Origin: Patescibacteria group bacterium
GTDB lineage: Bacteria > Patescibacteriota > Patescibacteriia > UBA2591 > JAQWAS01
Direction: 5' to 3'
Assembly (NCBI GenBank): GCA_028707495.1
Contig: JAQWAS010000006.1
Span: forward strand, 664 to 64,663
Length of the DNA: 64,000 nt
The notes below the pieces were generated by a model. It was not told the origin of the DNA. It saw only the letters and a list, made by a program, of their open reading frames with translations, and made no database searches. Below are positions 1-53,835 of this stretch, piece by piece. The position numbers and the translations under genes are program-made. The first letter of the stretch is position 1; each line of letters starts with the position of its first letter.

Positions 1-355
1 CAAACAAAATTGGGGAAAAAATAACCAAAACTGTCGGAATCAATGAAGCTAAACGTCCATCGGTGGCTATCTTTCTATTGAGAAGCAGGCTTGCGCCCAA
101 GATAAGGCCAAGCATAACAATTATTCCACCGAGCAAATTTCCAACCGATAAAGCCGTGGCGCGATCAATCGTTGCGTTTATACCCAAAGAAAGTTCGGGC
201 AAGCTGGTGATAAGTCCGAGCAAAATTCCAAACGCGAACAAGCGAATTTTTAAAACAGCGCCCAAATACTTGATATTTTTTACAGCAAAATTCGCCGACC
301 AGCCCAAGGCGATAAATAGTAATAAAAGTTTTAGTGAATCAAGTAAAATTGGCAT
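1..355 (-). CDS. CaCA-family (Na+/Ca2+ exchanger-like) membrane antiporter, N-terminal part; the gene runs off the left edge
   Basis: Manual minus-strand translation from ATG at 353-355 gives MPILLDSLKLLLLFIALGWSANFAVKNIKYLGAVLKIRLFAFGILLGLITSLPELSLGINATIDRATALSVGNLLGG..., which contains the alpha-repeat GxSxPE motif of CaCA exchangers. It is absent from the ORF track because it is partial; the + ORF 63..431 is its antisense shadow. Confidence 0.5.
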   Translation of the reverse strand, partial: MPILLDSLKLLLLFIALGWSANFAVKNIKYLGAVLKIRLFAFGILLGLITSLPELSLGINATIDRATALSVGNLLGGIIVMLGLILGASLLLNRKIATDGRLASLIPTVLVIFSPILF

Positions 356-392
356 AATTATAATTTTTCAATTCTTTTTTTGTAACAATCAT

Positions 393-1034
393 CTATTTAA
401 AACTATCCAATTTCAACGGTGCCCTGTCTGATTTGTCACGCATCAATGTTTTAATGATACTTCTCTTGCTTATGCCCAATACCAATAAAATTGTGGCGCT
501 GATTATGCCGAAGAAAGTTATTATTCCGAAAAGAATGTTAAAACCGAATTTATCGGCTATTATAGCGCCTATTGCGGCACTTGATGCTGTGGCTATACCT
601 ACGCCAACATCTTCCAGCGACCATTCAAACCCAACAATTTTTTTATCTATGTGATTGGTAAAAATTATACGCCAAGCCGGAACCGCCATAGAGTAGGCGA
701 GACCGTTAAAAATTTGTAATAAATATACATGCCATGGATGAGAGGATATCGTATAAAATAGCGGGATAATCGCGATTAAAAAAGTGCCGGCCACCATAAA
801 AGAATATTCGTCTCGCTCGCCTTTTATTTTGTCCATCAATCGGCTGATCGGCATTACCATAAGAACTCTTGTGATCCAGTAACAAGCCACCGCGTAGCCG
901 ATCACTTCAATCCTGTTTTCGATATTTTCTAAAATAAATACCGCGAATATGGGTGCCAGTAGGCCGACCGCAAAGAAAAGAAAAAAATCAGAGAAGATTA
1001 AAAAACGAATTGTCCTACTCACTTTATTATTCAT
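393..1034 (-). CDS. MFS-type transporter, half-size (6 TM, 213 aa)
   Basis: Hydrophobic six-helix protein with MFS motif A (RLMDKIKGERDE) between TM2 and TM3. Only half the length of a canonical 12-TM MFS. Confidence 0.55.
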   Translation of the reverse strand: MNNKVSRTIRFLIFSDFFLFFAVGLLAPIFAVFILENIENRIEVIGYAVACYWITRVLMVMPISRLMDKIKGERDEYSFMVAGTFLIAIIPLFYTISSHPWHVYLLQIFNGLAYSMAVPAWRIIFTNHIDKKIVGFEWSLEDVGVGIATASSAAIGAIIADKFGFNILFGIITFFGIISATILLVLGISKRSIIKTLMRDKSDRAPLKLDSFK

Positions 1035-1302
1035 AGTTTATATTAATTGTTTATTTTATAAAATCGTTTTCTGAGCGACGAGAGGAGCGAGAAAAACACC
1101 ATATACCCCCCTCTTAAAAAAATAAAAATAAAATTTGTTCATTATAGAAAAGTGTTAGGCGTTAGCCGTAAAAAGAAAAGCATATTTCATATAACAGGGT
1201 TTATACAAACTCATTAAATTGAGCCTTTATTTAAGCCAAAAATGAGCTTAAAATTTGTAATCATAAATGGTTATGATTACACAGAAATAGGCTATTTATT
1301 AT

Positions 1303-2826
1303 TTACCTTGCATACTCAGTAATGCGTTTTTCACGAATAACGCTGACCTTGATCTCGCCAGGATATTTGAGTTCTTCTTCAATGCGATTAGCTATTTCAC
1401 GAGCGAGCTTTTGAGCTTGAAGATCATCAATTTCTTCGGGCATAACAAAAACGCGAATTTCGCGACCAGCTTGAATAGCATAAGTTTTATCAACTCCATC
1501 AAAGTCACGAGCTAGATTTTCAAGTTCCTCTAGACGTTTGATGTATTCTTCATAAGTATCTTTACGCGCACCAACTCGAGCGCCAGAAATGGCATCAGCT
1601 ACTTTAACAATGACCGATTCGAGTGTAGGTGGGTGATCTTCGTGGTGATAGGCAATACCATTGATAATTTCTTCTGACAGACCGAATTTTTTACCCAAGT
1701 CACGGCCAATATCAGGATGAGTACCAATTACTTCATGGTCAACAGCCTTACCAATGTCATGGAGTAAACCCGATTTTTTAGCAATGGTGACGTCTGCTCC
1801 TAGTTCAGCTGCCAAGAGGGCAGAGAGGTTAGCAACTTCAATTGAGTGTTGTAGAACATTCTGACCATAGGATGAGCGGAATTTTAAACGACCTAAAAGT
1901 TGAATCAGTTTAGGATCTAAACCAGTTACACCCATTTCATAAACTGCATCTTCACCAGCTTTGCGAATCTCACGAGCCATTTCTTCTTTAGTTTTTTTAA
2001 CAATTTCTTCAATGCGACCCGGATGAATACGACCATCCAAAATTAATTTTTCTAAAACTCTTTTAGCTAAATGACGACGAATCGGTGAAAAACCAGAGAT
2101 AACCACGGTTTCTGGAGTGTCATCAACTATAATTTCTGTGCCAGTTAATTGTTCTAAAGTTTTAATATTACGACCTTCACGACCAATAATACGACCCTTT
2201 AATTCGTCCGATGGTAAGCTGACGGTCGTGGTGGTTAGTTCGGGAGTAACTGACGAAGCGCAACGTTCAACGGTTTGAGTTAAAATTTGTCGTGCTTTGT
2301 TGTCCCATTCTTCTTGAGAAATATTTTCTAATTTACGAACACGCTGAACCAAATCGTCTTTAATTTGACGTTCGGTATTTTTTAATAAAACATCTTTAGC
2401 TTCATCTTGGGTTAAACCGGCAATTTTTTGGAGTTTTTCCATTTGTTGCCCTTTAATTTCCTTGATGCTTTCTTCTTCTTTGCGTAGTTGCTCAGTTTTT
2501 TTAAAGATAGTCTCTTGTTTATTTTCTAGGTCAAGAATTTTTTTATCAAAAACCTCTTCGCGCTTCTCTAGTCTTTGTTGTTGAGAGTGGAGGTCTTTTT
2601 TAGTTTCTTGTTCTTCTTGTTTAGCCTTTTCAATAATAACTAAAGCCTTATCCTTGGCTTGGATAAGTAATTCTTTGTGTTGAGTTTTAGCTTCATTAAT
2701 TAAGGCAATAGCCTTAGCTTCAGCTGATTCCGCATTGCGGGCAGCTATGAGTTTACGAACAAAGTAGCCAATCACAAAGCCGACTGGCAAGGCCAGGGCT
2801 AAAATCAAAGGTAAAATATCGTTCAT
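1303..2826 (-). CDS. rny: Ribonuclease Y
   Basis: N-terminal TM helix, long coiled-coil, KH domain (GRIIGREGRNIKTLEQLTG) and HD domain (LLHDIGK...HHE), 507 aa, which is the typical RNase Y architecture. Confidence 0.9.
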   Translation of the reverse strand: MNDILPLILALALPVGFVIGYFVRKLIAARNAESAEAKAIALINEAKTQHKELLIQAKDKALVIIEKAKQEEQETKKDLHSQQQRLEKREEVFDKKILDLENKQETIFKKTEQLRKEEESIKEIKGQQMEKLQKIAGLTQDEAKDVLLKNTERQIKDDLVQRVRKLENISQEEWDNKARQILTQTVERCASSVTPELTTTTVSLPSDELKGRIIGREGRNIKTLEQLTGTEIIVDDTPETVVISGFSPIRRHLAKRVLEKLILDGRIHPGRIEEIVKKTKEEMAREIRKAGEDAVYEMGVTGLDPKLIQLLGRLKFRSSYGQNVLQHSIEVANLSALLAAELGADVTIAKKSGLLHDIGKAVDHEVIGTHPDIGRDLGKKFGLSEEIINGIAYHHEDHPPTLESVIVKVADAISGARVGARKDTYEEYIKRLEELENLARDFDGVDKTYAIQAGREIRVFVMPEEIDDLQAQKLAREIANRIEEELKYPGEIKVSVIREKRITEYAR

Positions 2827-3004
2827 AATATTTTAATTTAAACATAATTTATTAATTTTAATTTACATTTTTTAAACTATAAATTTAAATAATAACGTAA
2901 ATTTATTTTATTGTAGCATAGATTTAATTAACAATCAAGCGGTGATGAAAATTAATTTAAAAAAAAGAAGACAATTGTAGTCTTGCCTTCAAATTTTTAG
3001 ACTC

Positions 3005-3646
3005 TTATTTTATAACCTTATCGATTAATCCATATTTTAAAGCTTCTTGAGATGTTAAAAAGAAATCGCGATCAGTATCTTGTTCGATTTGAGTTAATTT
3101 TTGGCCGGTGTGTGTGGATAAAATTTTATTAATTTTATCTTTAATTTTTAAAATATGCTCAGCTCGAATTTTAACATCAATTGCTTGACCTTCAGCGCCA
3201 CCCATGACTTGGTGAAGCATAATTTCGGCATTCGGCAAAGCAAGGCGTTTACCTTTAGCTCCGGCAGCCAGCAGAACGGCACCCATACTCGCCGCCGTGC
3301 CAATGCAAATAGTCATAATATCAGGTTTAATGTATTGCATGGTATCGTAAATAGCCATGCCAGAAGTTACCATGCCACCAGGCGTGTTGATATATAATTT
3401 AATATCTTTGTTTTTATCTTCACTTTCTAAAAATAAAAGTTGGGCGATGATAGTATTAGCTACCGCATCGTTAATCGGATTACCTAAAAAAATAATTCTT
3501 TCTTTAAGTAGGCGAGAGTAAATATCATAAGCGCGTTCACCACGAGATGATTTTTCAATTACCGTAGGAATAAGTTGAAAATTTTGAGCTTGAATTTGAG
3601 ATGTCATATTTTTTAATTTTAATTTAAACCGGGTTAGAAGTTTCAA
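3005..3646 (-). CDS. clpP: ATP-dependent Clp protease proteolytic subunit
   Basis: ClpP core motifs [18 protein letters not shown] and [14 protein letters not shown], about 200 aa. Confidence 0.9.
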
Positions 3647-3920
3647 ATTTAAAAGTAATACGTGGAATCCATTTTAATCTAATTTGACGATTAAGCTTGC
3701 GTTGAAGATGACCAATATTTTTTTCTAAAATTTTTAAAGTGGTACCAGCTTGAGTTTCTGGAAAAACACTAATATAAATATCGGCGTTTTTAAAATTATC
3801 ACTAGTATCAACTCGAGTTATAGTTAAAAAGCTTTCCAAAGGGAGTTCAATCTCACGAGCAAGAATTTGGCTTAATTGCTGTCGAATTAAAATATTAATT
3901 TTTTCTAAACGTTCCGTCAT
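3624..3920 (-). CDS. rbfA: Ribosome-binding factor A
   Basis: 98 aa protein immediately downstream of infB; the RbfA-like sequence and this gene order are conserved. Confidence 0.75.
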
Positions 3921-3922
3921 AA

Positions 3923-5917
3923 TTATTGAATTGTATTTTTTTCTTGTTCAACCTCTTTAAAGGCGCGCAGAATATCGTCGGGTTGAATTTGAGTTTTACC
4001 TTCAAATTGCAGGCCACACTCTTCACCGGCATTAGCCTGAGGAATATCTTGTTGGCTTTTTTGAATTTTACTTACCTTACCTAAACCAATTTCTTTTTGA
4101 TCGCGTAAGATTAAACAGCGATTACCCTTTTCGATTTTACCACTAACAACCTGTCCGCCCAAAATAGTTTGTTTAGCTTCTTGGCGGAAAATTTTTAAAA
4201 CTTTTAATTGACCGGTTTCGATTGTTTTAAACTCGGGTTGAATGAGTTTATTCATGCAATCCTTAATTTCATCAATCAATTCATAAATAATACCAAAATT
4301 TTTAACTGGAATATTTTTATTTTTAGCTAATAGGTCAGCAGAAGTAGAAATTTGAGTATTAAAGCCAAAAACATGACCATGCTTAACTTCAGCACGCAAA
4401 ATGTCGGTTTCATTAATTTGACCTAAACCACGTTTAATAATATTAATTTTAATTTTAGGATGTTCTAATTTATTAATAGCCTCTTCAACGGCCTCAAGCG
4501 AACCCATAACATCAGCTTTTAAAACCAAGTTTAAATTAATTCTATCAGAGGACTCTTCGGTAGTTTTGTTTTTAATTGATAAAATTTGTTCAAAAGTTTC
4601 TTGTTGTTTTATCTTTTTTCTTTTTTTAAGATCTTTTTTGTCATCAATTTTTTCTAAAATGTCGCCAGCTTGCGGAGTGTTTTTTAAACCTAAAATTTTA
4701 ACCGGTGTACCGGGAAGAGCTTGTTCAATTTCTTGGCCATTAGTTAATTTTAAAGACTTTATTTTGCCACTACCTTGATTAACCAAAACAATATCATTTT
4801 TTTTAAGAGTACCACTTTGAATTAAAACTATAGCTTGTGGACCTTCGTTTTTATCTAGATGAGCCTCGATAATTGTGCCTAAAACCGGGCCATTGGGATC
4901 AGCCATAATTTTTTCTTTTTCCATATCAACAATCAACAAAATCATATCTAATAAATCATCAATGCCTTGTCCGGTTTTGGCTGAAATTGGCACGCAAATT
5001 GTTTTTCCGCCCCAGTCTTCTGGAGTTAGGTTAATTTCAGATAACTGTTTTTTAACTTGATCAACGTTGGCCTCGGGTTTGTCAACTTTATTAATAGCCA
5101 CTAGCATCATCAGATTTTCTTCTTGAATAATTTTAATCGATTCCATGGTTTGGGGCTTTAAACCTTCCTCGGCCGCCACGATTAAAATAGCGATATCGGC
5201 AATAGTGCCACCGCGGGAACGCATTTTTTTAAAAGCCGCATGTCCAGGTGTATCAATAAAAGTAATAAGTTTATTTTTCTTTTCAACCTGATAAGCTGAA
5301 ATGTGTTGGGTAATACCTCCTTGTTCTGATTGAGTAACGTGAGTTTTACGAATAGCATCTAATAAAGTTGTTTTACCATGATCGATGTGGCCCATAATTG
5401 TTACCACTGGCGTTTTAGAGCTTAAATTTTGATCAAGGTGTTGAGCAATAAGATCCTTAGCATTAATTTTTCTAATCTTTTTTTCTTCTAGAGACTGTTC
5501 CGTCACTCTAAATCCTAAATCCTCAACAATAATAGCTGCAGTTTCAAAATCAATATTGTCATTAATTGTTGCCATAATACCGTTGCGCATTAGTTCACTG
5601 ATAACTTTTACAACCGATAAATTAAGTCTATCGGCTAAATCATTAACAGTGATGACCTTAGGTAGACTGACTGGTGGTTGGTCAGCTTTAGCTTCAGCTT
5701 TTTTTTCTTTAAGTTGATCTTGTATTTCAATTTTTTGACTAATACTTTTAAGCTTCTCCTGCTCTTGATAATCTTTCCAGACTTGAATGATTTTTTCAGC
5801 AATTTTATCATCGACCTGAATGGCTTTTTCCCCCACATCAAAACCAAGCTGAGGAATTTTTTCGCGCAACTCTTGGGTTGAGGTTTTTAGTTTTCTAGCT
5901 AATTCAGTGATATTCAT
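3923..5917 (-). CDS. infB: Translation initiation factor IF-2
   Basis: G-domain motifs GHIDHGKTTLLD, DTPGH and NKVD, C-terminal beta-barrel domains, 664 aa. Confidence 0.9.
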   Translation of the reverse strand: MNITELARKLKTSTQELREKIPQLGFDVGEKAIQVDDKIAEKIIQVWKDYQEQEKLKSISQKIEIQDQLKEKKAEAKADQPPVSLPKVITVNDLADRLNLSVVKVISELMRNGIMATINDNIDFETAAIIVEDLGFRVTEQSLEEKKIRKINAKDLIAQHLDQNLSSKTPVVTIMGHIDHGKTTLLDAIRKTHVTQSEQGGITQHISAYQVEKKNKLITFIDTPGHAAFKKMRSRGGTIADIAILIVAAEEGLKPQTMESIKIIQEENLMMLVAINKVDKPEANVDQVKKQLSEINLTPEDWGGKTICVPISAKTGQGIDDLLDMILLIVDMEKEKIMADPNGPVLGTIIEAHLDKNEGPQAIVLIQSGTLKKNDIVLVNQGSGKIKSLKLTNGQEIEQALPGTPVKILGLKNTPQAGDILEKIDDKKDLKKRKKIKQQETFEQILSIKNKTTEESSDRINLNLVLKADVMGSLEAVEEAINKLEHPKIKINIIKRGLGQINETDILRAEVKHGHVFGFNTQISTSADLLAKNKNIPVKNFGIIYELIDEIKDCMNKLIQPEFKTIETGQLKVLKIFRQEAKQTILGGQVVSGKIEKGNRCLILRDQKEIGLGKVSKIQKSQQDIPQANAGEECGLQFEGKTQIQPDDILRAFKEVEQEKNTIQ

Positions 5918-6025
5918 ATGTTCCTATTGTACTCTTTTAAACCAAATAAGTCAATTAATAAATTAAAAAACTTGATTTTATTATCAGAATAAGTTAAAAT
6001 AAGATTTAATATAAACAAATAAATT

Positions 6026-7192
6026 ATGGCCTCAGACTTAATTAAAAAATTGCAAGAATTGATTAAAAAATCAACCAGAATTTTAGTTATTTTTCCAGCT
6101 GATTTTGATGGTGATATGTTAGCTTCAAGTTTGGCTTGGATAAATTTTTTATCTAAATGCGATCGACAATTACATGTCGATATAGTCGCTGATGGTATAG
6201 AAATTCCTAAAAAGTATGATTTTTTAAAATGTTTAGATCAAATTCAATCGAAGTTGAATTTAATTCGGGATTTAGTTATTTCTATCCAATCTCAAGACAA
6301 TAAAATTGGCGAATTAAGCTATGAAACGATTGATAATAAATTAAACATTTATTTATCTCCACAAGATCGAACTATTCAAAAAAATGATATTGCTTTAAGT
6401 TTAGACGGTTATAACTACGACTTGATTTTTGTTTTGGGTTGTCAACATTTATCTGACTTGGACACTGTTTATACTACACATAAAGATTTTTTTGATAAGA
6501 CGGCAATAATTAATTTTGATTATCATGCCAATAATGACAATTTTGGAATTTTAAATATTATTGATGTTAACTCAGCTTCGTTGGGAGAAGTGATTTATAA
6601 AATTATGCGTGGCTATAACCAAGAGCTAATTGATAAAGACATGGCCACGAGTTTATTGGCAGCGATGATTGCAGCAACTAACGCTTTTCGTTCGGCTAGC
6701 ACGAGCCAACACACTTTATTGGCAGCCAGCCAACTAATTTCTTTTGGAGCTGACAAAAGGAAAATTATGGAGAAATTATTTGAAAGTCGTTCCGTCGCCG
6801 TTTTAAAATTATGGGGTAGAGTTTTAGCGAGATTAAAAAATTCTCGCGATGGAAAGATTGCTTGGTCATTAATTTCAGATGAAGATATTTTGAAAAGTGG
6901 CTTAGATGGTTTAAATTCAACGGAGCAGGAAGAAGTAGTTTTTTGGGACATTATTAAAGAGCTTTATGCTAGTTTGTCACAAGCTCAAGTTGTTGCTATT
7001 TTTAGGCAAAAAAACAATCAAGTTAATGTTTATTTAAAATCACGAGACAGTAAAATTGATTTATTGAAAATCACTGAAGATTTCTCACCTCAAGGCGACA
7101 GTCAAAAAGTTAAATTAACATTTGAAAACGGCAGTATTTTAGAAATTGAAGATATTTTAACTAAACTGATAGAAACTAAAATGAGATCATAA
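6026..7192 (+). CDS. DHH-family phosphoesterase (NrnA-like, motifs partly degenerate)
   Basis: N-terminal DxD motif (FPADFDGD) and a DHH-like motif (FDYHANND). Transcribed divergently from rbfA/infB, a neighbourhood where nrnA is often found. Confidence 0.5.
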   Translation: MASDLIKKLQELIKKSTRILVIFPADFDGDMLASSLAWINFLSKCDRQLHVDIVADGIEIPKKYDFLKCLDQIQSKLNLIRDLVISIQSQDNKIGELSYETIDNKLNIYLSPQDRTIQKNDIALSLDGYNYDLIFVLGCQHLSDLDTVYTTHKDFFDKTAIINFDYHANNDNFGILNIIDVNSASLGEVIYKIMRGYNQELIDKDMATSLLAAMIAATNAFRSASTSQHTLLAASQLISFGADKRKIMEKLFESRSVAVLKLWGRVLARLKNSRDGKIAWSLISDEDILKSGLDGLNSTEQEEVVFWDIIKELYASLSQAQVVAIFRQKNNQVNVYLKSRDSKIDLLKITEDFSPQGDSQKVKLTFENGSILEIEDILTKLIETKMRS

Positions 7193-7211
7193 ATAATAAA
7201 ATGTTTTTTGA

Positions 7212-7288
7212 GGGCGCATAGCTCAGTTGGTTAGAGCACCACGCTTATAACGTGGGGGTCGATGGTTCGAGTCCATCTGCGCCCACCA
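7212..7288 (+). tRNA. tRNA-Ile with anticodon UAU, CCA encoded
   Basis: Manual cloverleaf: acceptor GGGCGCA/TGCGCCC, anticodon stem CCACG/CGTGG, loop CTTATAA giving anticodon TAT, T-loop TTCGAGT, 3' CCA. Confidence 0.8.
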
Positions 7289-7390
7289 GAATAACTGATA
7301 ACTCATAATCGCAAGATTGTTTTTAATATGAAGTTGTGATAAAGTTAAATGTTGTTATCGGTTACGAGTTGTAAGTTATAAGTTTTTTCC

Positions 7391-7465
7391 GCCGGGGTAG
7401 CTCAGTGGTAGAGCAGATGACTGAAAATCATCGTGTCGGCAGTCCGATTCTGCCCCCCGGCACCA
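7391..7465 (+). tRNA. tRNA-Phe (GAA), CCA encoded
   Basis: Acceptor GCCGGGG/CCCCGGC, anticodon loop CTGAAAA (GAA), T-loop TCCGATT; close to canonical bacterial tRNA-Phe. Confidence 0.85.
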
Positions 7466-7765
7466 CTACCAACTTTGGAAAAGTTGGTGTGGTGCCCCGG
7501 CACCACTATACATTTTTTTAAAAAGTTGACGTGGATGTCCTTGACACCACTATACATTTTTTTAAAAAGTTGACGTGGATGTCCTTGACACCACTATACA
7601 TTTTTTTAAAAAGTTGACGTGGATGTCCTTGACACCACTATACATTTTTTTAAAAAGTTGACGTGGATGTCCTTGACACCACTATACATTTTTTTAAAAA
7701 GTTGATGTGGTGTCTTCAATATCACCTATATCTTTAAAAAAGTTGATGTGATGTCTTTAGTGCCA
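7462..7765. repeat. Tandem array of a 44 bp repeat: four perfect copies at 7501-7676 flanked by about three degenerate copies, beginning inside the 3' end of tRNA-Phe
   Basis: Unit caccactatacatttttttaaaaagttgacgtggatgtccttga repeats with period 44 at 7501, 7545, 7589 and 7633. Degenerate copies lie at 7466-7500 and 7677-7765. The copy at 7494-7507 re-creates the tRNA 3' end (ccccggcaccacta). Confidence 0.85.
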
Positions 7766-7794
7766 ACTCACTAGCAATATATTACAATATAATT

Positions 7795-8046
7795 ATGTTT
7801 TATGTGTACGTAATTAAAAGCCAAAAAGACAACATGACGTATATTGGTTCAACTAATGATTTAAAAAGAAGATTTAATGAACATAATAAGGGTTTAGTTA
7901 AATCAACAAAACCAAGGATACCGTTTGAATTAATTTATTATGAAGCCTATAAATCAGAAGCAGATGCCAGAAGGAGAGAGCATAATTTAAAATTAAAAAG
8001 CCGTGCTTACGCGCAACTTAGAAAAAGAATTGAAAATAGTTTATAA
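7795..8046 (+). CDS. GIY-YIG nuclease family protein (UPF0213/YhbQ-like, 83 aa)
   Basis: N-terminal YVYVIKS...YIGST and the conserved R...E..H.N motifs of the GIY-YIG fold. Confidence 0.8.
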   Translation: MFYVYVIKSQKDNMTYIGSTNDLKRRFNEHNKGLVKSTKPRIPFELIYYEAYKSEADARRREHNLKLKSRAYAQLRKRIENSL

Positions 8047-8056
8047 TTGGTTATTT

Positions 8057-8133
8057 CGGAGTGTGGCCTAGTGGCTTAAGGCGCTTGCTTTGGGAGCAAG
8101 AGATCGCGGGTTCGAGTCCCGCCACTCCGACCA
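8057..8133 (+). tRNA. tRNA-Pro (UGG), CCA encoded
   Basis: Acceptor CGGAGTG/CACTCCG, anticodon stem CTTGC/GCAAG with loop TTTGGGA (TGG), T-loop TTCGAGT. Confidence 0.85.
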
Positions 8134-8157: not shown

Positions 8158-10032
8158 ATGAATCCAGAGAAAATAACTCAGGAATTTTTACCAGATGAAA
8201 CAAATAGACTTGACGTTTTAAATCAAGAAAATTTTAATGATTTACCAGAATATATTCAAGTAAGTCGAGAATTTAGAGATAAATTATGCGAATCGATTGA
8301 AACAGAAGGCTGGCCAGAATATCCCAATGAAAACGTAAAAGGTATTGAAGATTTTTTTAACCAAGCTAAAGATCAAGTAGATCAAAGATGGGAAAAATAT
8401 GCGACAGGGGTTTTAAGCGAAGATTTAAAAAAATGGGCTGATGAAATTCCTAATCATAAAAGCAATAAGGAAATTAAATTTTTATTATCCAATCCTGAAG
8501 AATTAGAAGAAAAATTAAAAATTAATCAATTTGGCGTTTTAGAATCTTTGAGAAATATAAAGCCAGAGGCTTGGCGAGAGTTGGTTCTTTCGGCATCAGA
8601 AAGACAATTGGCTCGTGTAGTTTTAACTCGTCATTGGATGAAAGAAATGTCTGACGAGCAATTTGAAATACTTGGTATTAATAAATCAGAAATGGAAATT
8701 TTACTTGATGCGGCTGGGATTTTTGGAAAATATATTGATCATGCTTATGTTAAACAAATTGAAATGGCTGATCGACCTGGCGGTCAAGAAAAAACACAAT
8801 TTGAAGATGATCCAGGCTCAGAATGTGTTTATGAATTTAAATCAGATCAACCAGACAAAATTGATTTAAAACCATATATTGATGTTTTTCCTTTTGAGTT
8901 CAAAAGAATAGATGTGGGTTTTAATTTTTTGTCACAAAAAGTTAGAAAATTTTTAGATCAAGGTAAATTACCAGAAGCTTATAATAATTTGCCAGATTAT
9001 TTAGAAAATATTTCTCGAAACTATATATCAGAAGAAGTTACTTTTGAAACTTTGGATAAAAATTGGAAGGAATTATATGCACAATTTGGGAAAATAAGTC
9101 AAAGCGAATGTCCACTTATGGTTATTCCTCAAGGAAATGCTTCAGTGGCAGGCGATGCTTCAAAAGTTGATATAGAATTAAGGTTAGGCGTAAAAACTTT
9201 AGAAACACGAGAGATGGAAAATGAGTTTCAAAGTTATCGACAAACAGCACAGTTCATGCTAGATAAAGTTGATACAGGACTAGATGAAAAGTATAAAATT
9301 CCTGAGGTAAATTTAAATTATCAACCTTTTGCTTTTGGGTCAGATCTTTTTTGGATGACAAGAGGCGAATCAGACGAAAAAACAATATCTTCTCATGTTA
9401 ATTCCGTAGCTGATGTGGCGATAGTTAGAGAGTTGCCACTTTTACAAAAAACATTCTTAGAAATGAAAACCGATCAAGCTGATTATACAAAATTGGCAGT
9501 TGATGAAACTGTTCGTCATGAAATTGGTCACAGTGTTGCGAGTTGGGAAGATAAAAAAGTTCTTAAAAGAATTGGCACTGGTTTTAATGCAGATGTTTTA
9601 GAAGAATTAAAAGCTGAAACACTTGGGGCTGAATTTTTTTATCAAAAAGCCATTGAAGCTAATTTAGATTCAACGGAAATTAAAAAGCATTTTTCAGCCA
9701 AGATGGGTGCGATGTGCGATTATTTAGCTAATAAAGATAAAAAAAGTGAAGCAGATAGGATATATTATTATTCAGGAGTAGCTATGTTTGATAAGCTTTT
9801 AGAACAAGGAGTTATTGTTATGTCAGAGTCGGGTCAGTATGAAATTACCGATGCTAAAAAAGGATTTGAAGTTTTAGGTGAAATAGGCAAAGACATTTTA
9901 AATAATTTTCATACTAATTCAAAGATTAAACCAAAAGAAGTTAAACAAAATTTAAAAGGATTTATTCAAGGATTAAAAGAGAAAGATAAAAAAGATCAGG
10001 TACAATCTTTTATAGAATTTTTAAAAAAATAA
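8158..10032 (+). CDS. Hypothetical soluble 624 aa protein with a zincin-like HExxH motif (HEIGH, with a downstream Glu)
   Basis: No TM segments, acidic; VRHEIGHSVASWED...EELKAE suggests a gluzincin-type metallopeptidase core. Otherwise unrecognisable. Confidence 0.5.
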   Translation: MNPEKITQEFLPDETNRLDVLNQENFNDLPEYIQVSREFRDKLCESIETEGWPEYPNENVKGIEDFFNQAKDQVDQRWEKYATGVLSEDLKKWADEIPNHKSNKEIKFLLSNPEELEEKLKINQFGVLESLRNIKPEAWRELVLSASERQLARVVLTRHWMKEMSDEQFEILGINKSEMEILLDAAGIFGKYIDHAYVKQIEMADRPGGQEKTQFEDDPGSECVYEFKSDQPDKIDLKPYIDVFPFEFKRIDVGFNFLSQKVRKFLDQGKLPEAYNNLPDYLENISRNYISEEVTFETLDKNWKELYAQFGKISQSECPLMVIPQGNASVAGDASKVDIELRLGVKTLETREMENEFQSYRQTAQFMLDKVDTGLDEKYKIPEVNLNYQPFAFGSDLFWMTRGESDEKTISSHVNSVADVAIVRELPLLQKTFLEMKTDQADYTKLAVDETVRHEIGHSVASWEDKKVLKRIGTGFNADVLEELKAETLGAEFFYQKAIEANLDSTEIKKHFSAKMGAMCDYLANKDKKSEADRIYYYSGVAMFDKLLEQGVIVMSESGQYEITDAKKGFEVLGEIGKDILNNFHTNSKIKPKEVKQNLKGFIQGLKEKDKKDQVQSFIEFLKK

Positions 10033-11678: not shown

Positions 11679-11840
11679 TGTCATCCCGAATTTCCGTCTG
11701 AACATCTATGGCTTTGTGTCATGCTGAATTTATTTCAGCATCTGTAATTAAGTTAAACGTTTCTTGCTCTGACAGGGTAAAAAGCATCAACAGATTCTGA
11801 AACAAGTTCAGAATGACAACTACAAAACAGAATGACAATC
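11679..11840. repeat. Copy A of the dispersed hairpin-repeat family (tgtcatcccgaa; gtcatgctgaa-N5-ttcagcatc; ttctgaa-N5-ttcagaatgacaa)
   Basis: Shares the TGTCAT..CTGAA / TTCAG..ATGACA modules with the loci at 13542, 20300, 21497 and 53609. Confidence 0.7.
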
Positions 11841-20299: not shown

Positions 20300-20632
20300 G
20301 AGCCATTGCGAGGAGCGTAGCGACGAGGCAATCTCTTACGAAATAGAATTTAATGCGTTGATTTACGGGATTGCCACGTCGTCGGATTACCTCCTCCTCG
20401 CAATGACACTTCGGAAGTAAGATTGCCGCCTGCCTGCGGCGGGCAGGCGTCGTTCGCCGAATTGGCAAACTCCTCCTCACAATGACACACATCTAAAGTG
20501 TCATGCTGAACTTGTTTCAGCATCTGTAGTTGGATTAAAATTTGTTATTTTAAATAGACATCATGAGTGTTTACAGATCCTGAAATAAATTCAGGATGAC
20601 AAAAGACAAATTCAGAATGACATCGATAATCA
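20300..20632. repeat. Copy C of the dispersed hairpin-repeat family (gtgtcatgctgaacttgtttcagcatctg; cctgaaataaattcaggatgacaa; ttcagaatgaca; GC-rich palindrome gcctgcctgcggcgggcaggcg)
   Basis: The 30-mer agtgtcatgctgaacttgtttcagcatctgt is identical to one at 53705-53735. The annotated ORF 20229..20492 lies over this repeat and is probably spurious. Confidence 0.7.
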
Positions 20633-20701: not shown

Positions 20702-20849
20702 ATAGATAGATAATAATTATGGTTCTTTGATATAATATTTAATTGCGAAAAGAACAGACTGTTAATGCGGTTGGTTGGTTATCTGACTGATTGCCTTAGT
20801 GGTCTACTCTTTTCGCAATTATACAAAACAAGTTTTCCAAGGAGGAAAG

Positions 20850-21341
20850 ATGGAATGGTGCAAGCAAGACGGTATCATTTATTTCACTGTCACTAGTGAC
20901 ACGACCGGCGAAGGGTGGATCGAGCGTTTCAAAGACCAAGGATTCGATGTTAGCGATTACGCCCAAGGCGTACTTCGTTCACCGGATTTCAAACCGACGA
21001 AGGGAGTGACAAGAAAAATTGCTATCATCATGGGTACAACCTGGGATCATTATAGAGATAGGACCACCAAAAACATCCGTGCCAAGGCATCAGAGCTTGG
21101 CTTTACCACCCCAAGTGGTGAAGTCGCCTGTCTTATCAAAGAGCAATTCTCTGACGAGAAGATTAAAGCCATGGGTCTTTACTGGATTGTCACCATGCAC
21201 GAGCCCATTTATGTTAACGGCGATCCGTTGCTACTCGACGCTAGCATCTCCCGGGTGGTCACGTACTATGGCAATCCCGACAGGAGGTGGAGCCGTGGCG
21301 ATGGGTTCGCTTTCGAGGTCCCGCAAGTTTCTGGCTCTTAA
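20850..21341 (+). CDS. Hypothetical 163 aa protein with GC content well above its surroundings
   Basis: Start chosen at the ATG at 20850, which is preceded by AAGGAGG; the ORF-track start at 20799 lacks an RBS. Promoter P1 lies upstream and an intrinsic terminator downstream. No signal peptide. Confidence 0.55.
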   Translation: MEWCKQDGIIYFTVTSDTTGEGWIERFKDQGFDVSDYAQGVLRSPDFKPTKGVTRKIAIIMGTTWDHYRDRTTKNIRAKASELGFTTPSGEVACLIKEQFSDEKIKAMGLYWIVTMHEPIYVNGDPLLLDASISRVVTYYGNPDRRWSRGDGFAFEVPQVSGS

Positions 21342-21496: not shown

Positions 21497-21633
21497 TGTC
21501 ATTCCCGCGTAGGCGGGAATCCAGGGTTAACAACTTTTAACTTTTTATAGAATAAGCCATATTTAATTTAAAGAGATTTTTTAAATTAAAGTATTTATTT
21601 AATCAATCCTGGATCCCCAATTAGGGATGACAA
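21497..21633. repeat. Copy D of the dispersed repeat family; about 137 bp with terminal inverted repeats TGTCATTCCC...GGGATGACA and an internal hairpin cccgcgtaggcggg
   Basis: The terminal inverted repeats are related to copy B (TGTCATTCTG). Confidence 0.65.
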
Positions 21634-53608: not shown

Positions 53609-53835
53609 TGTCATTCTAAATCCGCCTGGAGTGGATGAAAGAAATTGTCATGCTGAACTTTAGTCAGCCAAATCGGAGGATGTTTCAGCATCCGTTAGTA
53701 TGGGAAGTGTCATGCTGAACTTGTTTCAGCATCTGTTAACGCTTAAAATATTGATTCTTAAAAAACGTTTTTTTTCGACCACAGATCCCTGAACTGAATT
53801 CAGGGCAGGCTCTGAAATAAATTCAGGATGACAAT
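53609..53835. repeat. Copy E of the dispersed hairpin-repeat family (two gtcatgctgaac...ttcagcatc hairpins; ccctgaactgaattcaggg; ctgaaataaattcaggatgacaa)
   Basis: Contains the same 30-mer as copy C and the same 23-mer ctgaaataaattcaggatgacaa. Confidence 0.7.

Follow-up and report, generated by a model that had tools for sequence, protein, structure and literature searches.

The 64,000-nucleotide stretch of DNA analysed here (the window), from a Patescibacteria group bacterium, carries an array of 44-bp tandem repeats between a tRNA-Phe gene and a gene for an 83-aa GIY-YIG nuclease. We consider it likely that a decayed copy of a hairpin module, located where tRNA-Phe ends, has been amplified in tandem into this hypervariable array (a variable number of tandem repeats, VNTR), and that the palindrome of the module is the cognate element of the adjacent, Ssn-like nuclease. 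Hairpin-specific single-domain GIY-YIG nucleases (Ssn) were first described in 2025 (PMC11893778), and the recurring gene-plus-hairpin pairing described below resembles, by analogy of arrangement, that of these single-stranded DNA (ssDNA) nucleases. The first-pass annotation of this DNA recorded the array and its neighbours and missed the hairpin; it is this tRNA-end hairpin, and not the 44-mer or its TTGAC half-sites, that is the conserved feature of the locus.

A hairpin module at tRNA ends and its relatives across phyla

The tRNA-Phe gene (anticodon GAA, encoded CCA) occupies positions 7391–7465 of the plus strand, on which all features lie unless stated otherwise; it was identified with ARAGORN and by Rfam (RF00005, 68.3 bits). 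Its last 7 nucleotides (GGCACCA) and the first trailer base make up the outer 5' arm of a 17-bp hairpin at 7459–7496, which consists of GGCACCAC-T-ACCAACTTT, a GGA loop and AAAGTTGGT-GTGGTGCC. The order of the module is accordingly the tRNA 3' end (GGCACCAC), CCAACTT...AAGTTGG, GTGGTGCC and a second copy of the tRNA end. Folded as ssDNA the hairpin has an energy of −18.6 kcal/mol (z = −6.3), and it is also present in the minimum-free-energy (MFE) and centroid structures of the RNA; Rfam gave no non-coding RNA match for the hairpin or the array, even at E ≤ 1. The second tRNA-end copy is an exact 14-mer, CCCCGGCACCACTA, which starts at 7455 and again at 7495 (7495–7508). This duplication had been noticed previously as the last 14 nucleotides of the tRNA recurring at a distance of 39 bp; the 14-mer in fact comprises the last 11 nucleotides of the tRNA plus three of the trailer, and the two copies are 40 nucleotides apart, start to start. 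Positions 7489–7496 and the second copy together form a small palindrome, GTGGTGCC-CC-GGCACCAC.

The arms of this hairpin are kept in relatives. Loci from two metagenome-assembled genomes (MAGs), one of Falkowbacteria (L016) and one of Magasanikbacteria (L034), have the order tRNA-Phe, GIY-YIG gene, tRNA-Pro that is found in the window, and the module follows tRNA-Phe in both, with an invariant right arm (AAGTTGGTGTGGTGCC) and different loops. Second tRNA-end copies are GAGGCACC in L016, CCTCGGCACC in L034 and CCTCGGCACCAC in a further locus, L027. The latter runs from the tRNA-Phe end through the left arm, the open reading frame (ORF) and the right arm to a second tRNA-Phe end copy, and reads ...CCTCGGCACCAC-ACCAAT-T-ATG...TAA-TTGGTGTGGTGCC-TCGGCACCAC-CAA, followed by tRNA-Gly; L052 has a split layout of the same kind at the 3' end of tRNA-Leu. 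In the window, L016 and L034 the two tRNA-Phe end copies enclose the closed hairpin alone. The trailer pattern of the tRNA-Phe type is CACCAAC...GTTGGTGTGGTGCC.

Our comparison covered 80 loci with genes for close homologues of the GIY-YIG protein. In 55 of these, a perfect inverted repeat 10 or more nucleotides long encloses the ORF (shuffled controls gave 7–12 nucleotides), and it is nearly always (A)CCCCCACACCAA...TTGGTGTGGGGG(T), with the consensus arm AATTTACCCCCACACCAATTA. The arms usually lie 0–30 nucleotides from the start codon and 0–20 nucleotides from the stop codon. Half-sites are 64-fold denser within 150 nucleotides of the ORF than further off, and none was found in 61.6 kb of control loci lacking the gene. 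A closed palindrome stands beside the ORF in the window and in L016, L018, L034, L054, L059 and L062, and closed palindromes without an ORF occur next to the gene (L018, L054, L059, L062) or a few kilobases away (L040, L053, L062, L077). In many loci both arms carry the same, matched departure from the consensus (for example L023, L027, L041, L052, L058, L070, L078, L082 and L093). The hairpin of the window is the tRNA-Phe-type version of this generic CCCCCACACCAA/TTGGTGTGGGGG palindrome. The link between the array and the neighbouring GIY-YIG gene, to which the first-pass annotation drew attention, is supported.

Next to tRNA genes the outer bases of both arms are changed to match the tRNA end. 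The arm pair is GGCACCACACCAA / TTGGTGTGGTGCC at tRNA-Phe 3' ends and CCCCTCACCAAG... / ...CTTGGTGAGGGG, merging with GGGGCCCGTAG, at tRNA-Ala 5' ends, and such modules are followed, on the side away from the tRNA, by a repeat of around 10 nucleotides of its end. tRNA genes are enriched 4.2-fold within 250 nucleotides of the nuclease gene, with 19 of 20 on the same strand. An independent tandem iteration was found in L029, where a 63-nucleotide module (a tRNA 5' end copy, CTCCACACCAAATAAA, a loop and TTTATTTGGTG...) is present in 2.4 copies between the GIY-YIG gene and a tRNA. The genes of this family lie near contig ends about twice as often as a uniform distribution predicts, an excess that we do not rely on.

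Other repeats were seen around the homologues. The flanks of the gene in L036 (around 1780–2250, labelled Cloacimonadota) and L067 (around 2900–3400, labelled Clostridia) are near-identical and contain several copies of a longer repeat that includes the palindrome arm (...taaactcctaaatccacagTTGGTGTGGGGGtaaacc...), together with a 22-nucleotide perfect inverted repeat; this likeness suggests recent transfer or mis-binning. Tandem arrays directly upstream of homologous genes are present in L033 (2938–3011, 33 nucleotides × 2.3), with the unit between the left arm and the ORF, and at the contig start of L076 (1–82, 42 nucleotides × 2.0), where the unit is not obviously derived from the palindrome.

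Partial duplication of a tRNA 3' end had led the first-pass annotation to propose the footprint of site-specific integration. According to this explanation, an integrase inserted an element into tRNA-Phe and left an attL/attR remnant that was amplified later. It accounts for the exact 14-nucleotide second copy, and also for the arrangement in the closest relative, L005, in which DHH is followed by tRNA-Pro without tRNA-Ile, tRNA-Phe or the GIY-YIG gene. However, the two copies are only 40 nucleotides apart and enclose the hairpin instead of a kilobase-scale island, no integrase or recombinase gene lies within approximately 10 kbp, the unit was not found in viral contigs, and the junction recurs in distant lineages along with the GIY-YIG gene. 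An integrase footprint is thus highly improbable. What stands of the proposal is a junction of the insertion type, which we attribute to the GIY-YIG/hairpin module.

Anatomy and copy number of the 44-bp array

Analysis with Tandem Repeats Finder (TRF) detected a period-44 array at 7501–7714 (4.9 copies, 98% matches, score 414), far above the next-best score in the 64-kb window, 70. Four identical units, CACCACTATACATTTTTTTAAAAAGTTGACGTGGATGTCCTTGA, fill positions 7501–7676, and are followed by two decayed units, U5 at 7677–7717 (39 of 44 positions identical, with the mismatches concentrated at its 3' end) and U6 at 7718–7758 (32 of 44). Repeat search and pairwise alignment recognized a proto-unit, U0, at 7457–7500, in register with the 44-bp units and identical to them at 30 of 44 positions. 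The array adjoining tRNA-Phe and the GIY-YIG gene, as first described, is therefore composed of four perfect units, two decayed units and one proto-unit; it ends at 7758, just ahead of the nuclease gene as claimed, although the distance to the ATG at 7795 is 36 nucleotides and not about 30. The proto-unit begins within tRNA-Phe, and the first perfect unit begins within the second tRNA-end copy.

Every unit keeps the layout of the module, that is CACCAC-TA, a left arm that has decayed to an A/T run, and AAAAGTTGryGTGGnTGyC, in which the right arm is AAAAGTTGACGTGGATGTCC in the perfect units, AAAAGTTGATGTGGTGTC in U5 and AAAAGTTGATGTGATGTC in U6. The junction between units, GTGGATGTC-CTT-GACACCAC, mirrors the small palindrome GTGGTGCC-CC-GGCACCAC that ends the intact module. 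The 25-nucleotide core of the unit has four matches in the 64 kb, against 0.00 expected by chance, and no other site. A search of metagenome contigs with a 28-mer of the unit recovered the same locus only, and the nearest GIY-YIG homologues (77–79% identity) lack arrays. The 44-mer is limited to this species, whereas the hairpin, like its generic form, is met again in one phylum after another.

Contigs that encode exactly identical flanking proteins led to independent assemblies of this species. The number of perfect units is zero in L002 (JGI 3300014204; no flank mismatch to the window in 1,206 nucleotides), one in L003 (ENA ERZ27247363, k141; three mismatches in 608 nucleotides), at least two in L001 (JGI 3300029288; one mismatch in 1,383 nucleotides), whose contig starts inside the array, and four in the window as assembled. 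The flanks of these alleles are 99.5–100% identical to the window, and copy number changes faster than point substitutions accumulate. Because copy number differs while the flanks are near-identical, the locus is a fast-changing VNTR, and the recent expansion suspected previously is borne out by alleles of 0, 1, at least 2 and 4 perfect units that differ by 0–3 bases in their flanks. Head-to-tail units, a number that varies between strains and near-identical flanks, the marks of a VNTR, were all found, and the array by itself is an ordinary fast-evolving VNTR. Comparison of copy number with related strains, which had been proposed as a check, shows variation within the species; the 44-mer does not extend beyond it. 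All alleles, the 0-copy allele included, keep the proto-unit and the two decayed units, which indicates that units were duplicated in an earlier round and that a single type of unit was amplified recently. Furthermore, since an allele without perfect units exists, these units probably have no required function.

The possibility that the array is an assembly artefact, named as a caveat in the first-pass annotation, was considered together with the possibility of a replication origin or iteron cluster. Assemblers have difficulty with repeats that exceed the k-mer, and contigs do break at the array; short-k contigs of run SRR22315502, for example, are 100% identical to the window and broken on both sides of it. 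However, assemblies made independently contain the unit, and the contigs with 0 or 1 copy read through the whole region: they have unique sequence to the left and right of a shared stretch that does not exceed 73 nucleotides. Given the behaviour of de Bruijn assemblers, such contigs should not have arisen by collapse of longer arrays. As for an origin, the cumulative GC skew of positions 1–8000 has a shallow minimum at around 4–6 kb, where the IF-2 (minus strand) and DHH (plus strand) genes diverge. Against it, no DnaA box lies between 3113 and 15471, the 11 boxes in the window compare with 11.5 expected, and an allele with 0 copies could not exist if this were an essential origin. Artefact and origin can hardly be entertained as explanations of this array.

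A regulatory DNA array had also been envisaged. The perfect units do contain, as reported, two TTGAC half-sites 15 nucleotides apart (7526/7541 and so on) and a TATACA element, of which there are five in all. These TTGAC-N10-TTGAC sites or the phased A/T tracts, ahead of the GIY-YIG promoter, might serve a contingency locus whose expression shifts with copy number, or the units might act as tandem promoters. The pairs are regular, copy number is variable between strains as in known contingency loci, and the last base of the array, 7758, precedes by two bases the first hexamer of the one promoter-like site nearby, GTGCCA-17-TACAAT at 7760–7788. This site is a match to the consensus only and ends 6 nucleotides short of the ATG, so near that the GIY-YIG mRNA may be leaderless. 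The claim that each unit could fire as a promoter was not upheld: a scan for sigma-70 promoters detected no consensus hexamers with a spacing of 16–18 nucleotides in the units and no promoter-like site in 7457–7758, the nearest being that at 7760–7788, and the count for the region is not above that of shuffled sequences. Moreover, the TTGAC pair is absent from U5, U6, the proto-unit and the relatives, the 44-mer is species-specific, and no candidate regulator is adjacent. We regard a regulatory array as very unlikely.

The strongest rival is a role at the RNA level, in which the element would act within a tRNA-Phe/GIY-YIG/tRNA-Pro transcript in 3' processing, in stability or as a weak terminator or insulator that controls read-through into the nuclease gene, with copy number tuning expression. 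The hairpin appears in both predicted RNA structures; the stem at 7489–7506 was flagged as terminator-like together with a T-run 6 nucleotides away; the junction stem GTGGATGTC-CTT-GACACCAC is followed 6 nucleotides later by T7 in every unit; and the co-orientation of tRNAs with the gene noted above suggests co-transcription. On the other hand, the T-run is not kept, L016 and L034 having the hairpin without a U-tract, and on this account an intrinsic terminator was rejected. The arms are conserved in sequence, and not in pairing alone, across phyla and in contexts without a tRNA, which points to recognition by a protein. The stems of the units are weak, the 0-copy allele exists, and no Rfam family matches. 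An RNA-level role is consequently unlikely, and we continue to favour amplification of a decayed nuclease-associated hairpin module.

The GIY-YIG protein and known nuclease–repeat systems

The nuclease gene occupies 7795–8046 (Pfam PF01541, E = 1.3e-18), and the GIY-YIG domain covers residues 1–71 of its 83. The AlphaFold2 model (mean predicted local distance difference test score 95.9) has a beta-beta-alpha-beta-alpha arrangement, with a compact GIY-YIG core and a long C-terminal helix; Foldseek neighbours are UPF0213 BH0048, the Slx1 nuclease domain (template-modelling score around 0.65, root-mean-square deviation around 2 Å), I-TevI and UvrC. The GIY-YIG-motif residues Y3, Y5, Y16, G18, R26, H30, N31 and E62 are invariant in the alignment of the clade. 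A profile search of 1.84 billion representative sequences gave 16,656 hits at E ≤ 1e-3 and nine at E ≤ 1e-30, which fits a tight clade inside a large superfamily. Homologues are 63–83% identical across phyla (many Patescibacteria classes, Omnitrophota, Margulisiibacteriota, Saganbacteria, Elusimicrobia, Cloacimonadota, Clostridia and others), whereas the identity of the neighbouring DHH protein falls to around 35% already within Patescibacteria.

Second, more divergent GIY-YIG genes (36–53% identity) lie within around 1 kbp of the conserved one in L016 (2454–2657), L042 (3364–3612), L021 (4067–4264) and L034 (924–1124, minus strand); that of L016 is just upstream of tRNA-Phe, so that GIY-YIG genes flank the tRNA on both sides. 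In L100 (377–664) and L101 (497–784) a homologue of 79% identity, which has the split palindrome typical of the family, is located beside genes for ArsA-like and CDC48-type double-AAA ATPases. This context looks archaeal, and the element may thus occur in archaea as well. The 95-aa ORF called for the homologue in these two loci starts in the left arm, and the true start is probably an internal ATG.

Ssn nucleases are single-domain GIY-YIG proteins of around 94 aa (CDD cd10448; Chenal et al. 2025, Nat Commun, PMC11893778) that bind hairpin repeats, named NTS or SRM, as ssDNA only and cut next to them; such repeats typically stand on either side of the nuclease gene, an arrangement like that of an insertion sequence (PMC11893778). 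With the published SRM pattern (HGTCWY N0-2 YYVSBRH N0-5 WNVSBRG N0-2 RNCYNB) we recovered the expected flanks: the 94-aa Neisseria gonorrhoeae SsnA orthologue is embedded in NTS repeats, and the flanks in Neisseria, Rhizobium and Azospirillum all fit the pattern. The system of the window is similar in several respects. Both have a single-domain GIY-YIG protein of about 80–95 aa, here also without an extra DNA-binding domain; in both the gene is tied to a specific hairpin-forming inverted repeat on its flanks, which gives it the look of an insertion sequence; nuclease and hairpin appear to co-evolve; and the spread over phyla is wide. A cognate hairpin-forming repeat beside the gene, of whatever sequence, and the lack of a further domain are both features of the Ssn family that this clade shares.

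The differences are equally clear. The protein is 32–37% identical (44–50 bits) to the N. gonorrhoeae, Rhizobium and Azospirillum orthologues, which are 54–59% identical to each other. The CCCCCACACCAA/TTGGTGTGGGGG palindrome is outside the SRM pattern, none of the 80 loci having a match within 300 nucleotides of the ORF and none being found near 7795–8046 in the window. Here one palindrome is usually split around the ORF, whereas Ssn genes have complete hairpins on each side. In the loci compared the palindrome is not dispersed in high copy number (it occurs once in the 64-kb window), and its variants merge with tRNA gene ends and duplicate around 10 nucleotides of them. The locus is accordingly Ssn-like in architecture but represents a separate clade with a different palindrome and geometry, and the protein is a possible, not a certain, member of the Ssn family in the strict sense.

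The window also contains dispersed repeats of the canonical Ssn type (GTCAT plus a hairpin, for example GTCATGCTGAACTTGTTTCAGCATCTGT) at 11718–11745 (+), 11790–11817 (−), 20500–20527 (+), 20573–20600 (−), 21497–21524 (+), 21598–21624 (−) and 53709–53736 (+). Several are inverted pairs around 100 nucleotides apart, and one cluster flanks an unannotated, G+C-richer ORF at 20799–21341. One copy, TGTCATTCCCGCGTAGGCGGGAATCCAG at 21497, differs very little from the NTS consensus of Neisseria and gives the sole hit to the SRM pattern in the window, in which no canonical ssnA-like gene was found.

Other known systems share part of this organization. As in REP/RAYT elements (IS200/IS605-like Y1), a nuclease gene is flanked by palindromes that are presumed ssDNA-hairpin substrates, and solo palindromes without an ORF occur elsewhere; however, the folds are unrelated (GIY-YIG here, HUH/Y1 there), copy number here is far lower, and there are no BIME-like clusters but only the local tandem iterations of the window and L029. 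Free-standing GIY-YIG homing endonucleases such as T4 SegB are found in tRNA clusters, and Seg and I-TevI enzymes have a C-terminal DNA-binding domain and cut double-stranded DNA. The present gene likewise lies between co-oriented tRNA genes, with some insertion-like junctions that have a duplicated target (L027), but the protein is the catalytic domain alone. A homing endonuclease of the I-TevI/Seg type was rejected on its total length of 83 aa and on its match to the NCBIfam model of group I intron endonucleases (TIGR01453), which scores 25.3 bits (cut-off 56) and covers residues 4–39 only. The UPF0213/YazA-YhbQ family has a similar size and fold and provides the best PDB match in both sequence and structure (1zg2), with 40% identity to Bacillus subtilis YazA. 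In contrast, yazA of L096, the single locus inspected, overlaps housekeeping genes at its two ends and gives no match to the SRM pattern, whereas the clade described here is defined by its palindrome. Finally, the array has the head-to-tail identical units and the variability between otherwise identical strains that are typical of bacterial intergenic VNTRs and minisatellites, but its unit comes from a conserved nuclease-associated hairpin module and starts in a tRNA gene. The papers covered by a literature search made no mention of the palindrome, the only hits being unrelated, and nothing relevant was found on GIY-YIG proteins in combination with tRNA, palindromes or candidate phyla radiation (CPR) bacteria.

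Several points weigh against the interpretation of the array as an amplified cognate element of the nuclease. The proposed link between nuclease and hairpin is drawn from co-occurrence and from analogy, and the identity of the protein to SsnA is about as low as that to UPF0213/YazA, so the specificity for ssDNA may not carry over. The comparison of tRNA-Phe was made in genomes that bear the gene, and the hairpin could be a tRNA trailer peculiar to the lineage, its co-occurrence with the gene being incidental. In the window the arms of the hairpin do not enclose the ORF, and the arms that flanked it have decayed; the TTGGT that follows the stop codon is a possible remnant of a right arm. The count of four units is the figure given by the assembly and not one at read level. 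A single array unit folds weakly as ssDNA (−4.8 kcal/mol, z = −1.8), and the units, having lost the left arm, may no longer be substrates; because of this weak folding, the perfect units are probably decayed by-products and not active sites.

Proposed mechanism, gene neighbourhood and significance

By analogy with Ssn/NTS and REP/RAYT, the nuclease would recognise the hairpin when it is extruded in ssDNA and nick beside it. The module may have arrived at the tRNA end because the sequence ...CACCA resembles the outer arm, ...CACACCA. Its right end consists of the reverse complement of the tRNA-end sequence followed by the tRNA-end sequence itself, which would regenerate the target. Since the right side of the module recreates its own start sequence, head-to-tail iteration, by repeated insertion or by slippage, should be easy. 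The four identical units might then have resulted from recent slippage or unequal recombination between the 29-nucleotide heads that the units share, and nicks by the nuclease or extrusion of the hairpin possibly stimulate this amplification.

A more far-reaching idea, which we put forward as speculative and on balance doubtful, is that the GIY-YIG gene and the split palindrome constitute a previously unrecognised minimal mobile or homing cassette, with hairpin-guided insertion driven by the GIY-YIG protein, in bacteria and possibly archaea. The nuclease would read the closed palindrome as a hairpin, the ORF taking the position of the loop. tRNA ends would be captured when ...CACCA (3' ends) or GGGG... 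(5' ends) mimics the outer arm, and insertion would copy around 10 nucleotides of the tRNA end and re-template the distal arm to match. Each insertion would thereby regenerate the target on the far side, and could give rise to tandem arrays such as those of the window and L029.

The window is bacterial chromosome, with RNase Y, ClpP, RbfA and IF-2 genes encoded upstream on the minus strand. After IF-2 the order is a DHH phosphoesterase gene, tRNA-Ile(TAT), tRNA-Phe, the array, the GIY-YIG gene and tRNA-Pro (TGG, 8057–8133). The DHH protein is identical to one in a Patescibacteria MAG. Its nearest other relative, in L005 (53% identity), is located in a conserved ClpP-RbfA-IF-2/DHH region, where tRNA-Pro directly follows DHH and tRNA-Ile, tRNA-Phe and the GIY-YIG gene are missing between them, and more distant relatives have different tRNAs beside DHH. 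A scan of reference genomes for synteny with the DHH protein alone gave no result. No integrase, recombinase or transposase was found among the 20 neighbouring ORFs. The tRNA-Ile gene next to DHH (7212–7288) has the anticodon TAT, which is uncommon in bacteria, and tRNA-Ile(TAT) is likewise located by DHH in Buchananbacteria/Falkowbacteria-like relatives (L006, 7288–7361; L009, 7973–8046). A 624-aa ORF at 8158–10032, directly downstream of tRNA-Pro, has no Pfam match, and an identical protein is present in two other samples.

The specificities of Ssn nucleases make these enzymes interesting as tools for ssDNA. The present locus reveals a distinct clade of very close conservation, with a simple and different palindrome, in CPR bacteria, Omnitrophota, Margulisiibacteriota and other phyla, and the clade together with its palindrome is a candidate nuclease/site pair ready for assay. 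The tRNA-end variants, in which both arms change together and a short piece of the tRNA end is duplicated, give a concrete hint of the way in which elements of this kind are moved or copied, and the strain-variable array would serve as a natural read-out of instability at the hairpin site. For annotation, the hairpin module explains a group of unusual tRNA trailers and may be the reason why contigs break beside some genes annotated as 'GIY-YIG nuclease family protein' in MAGs.

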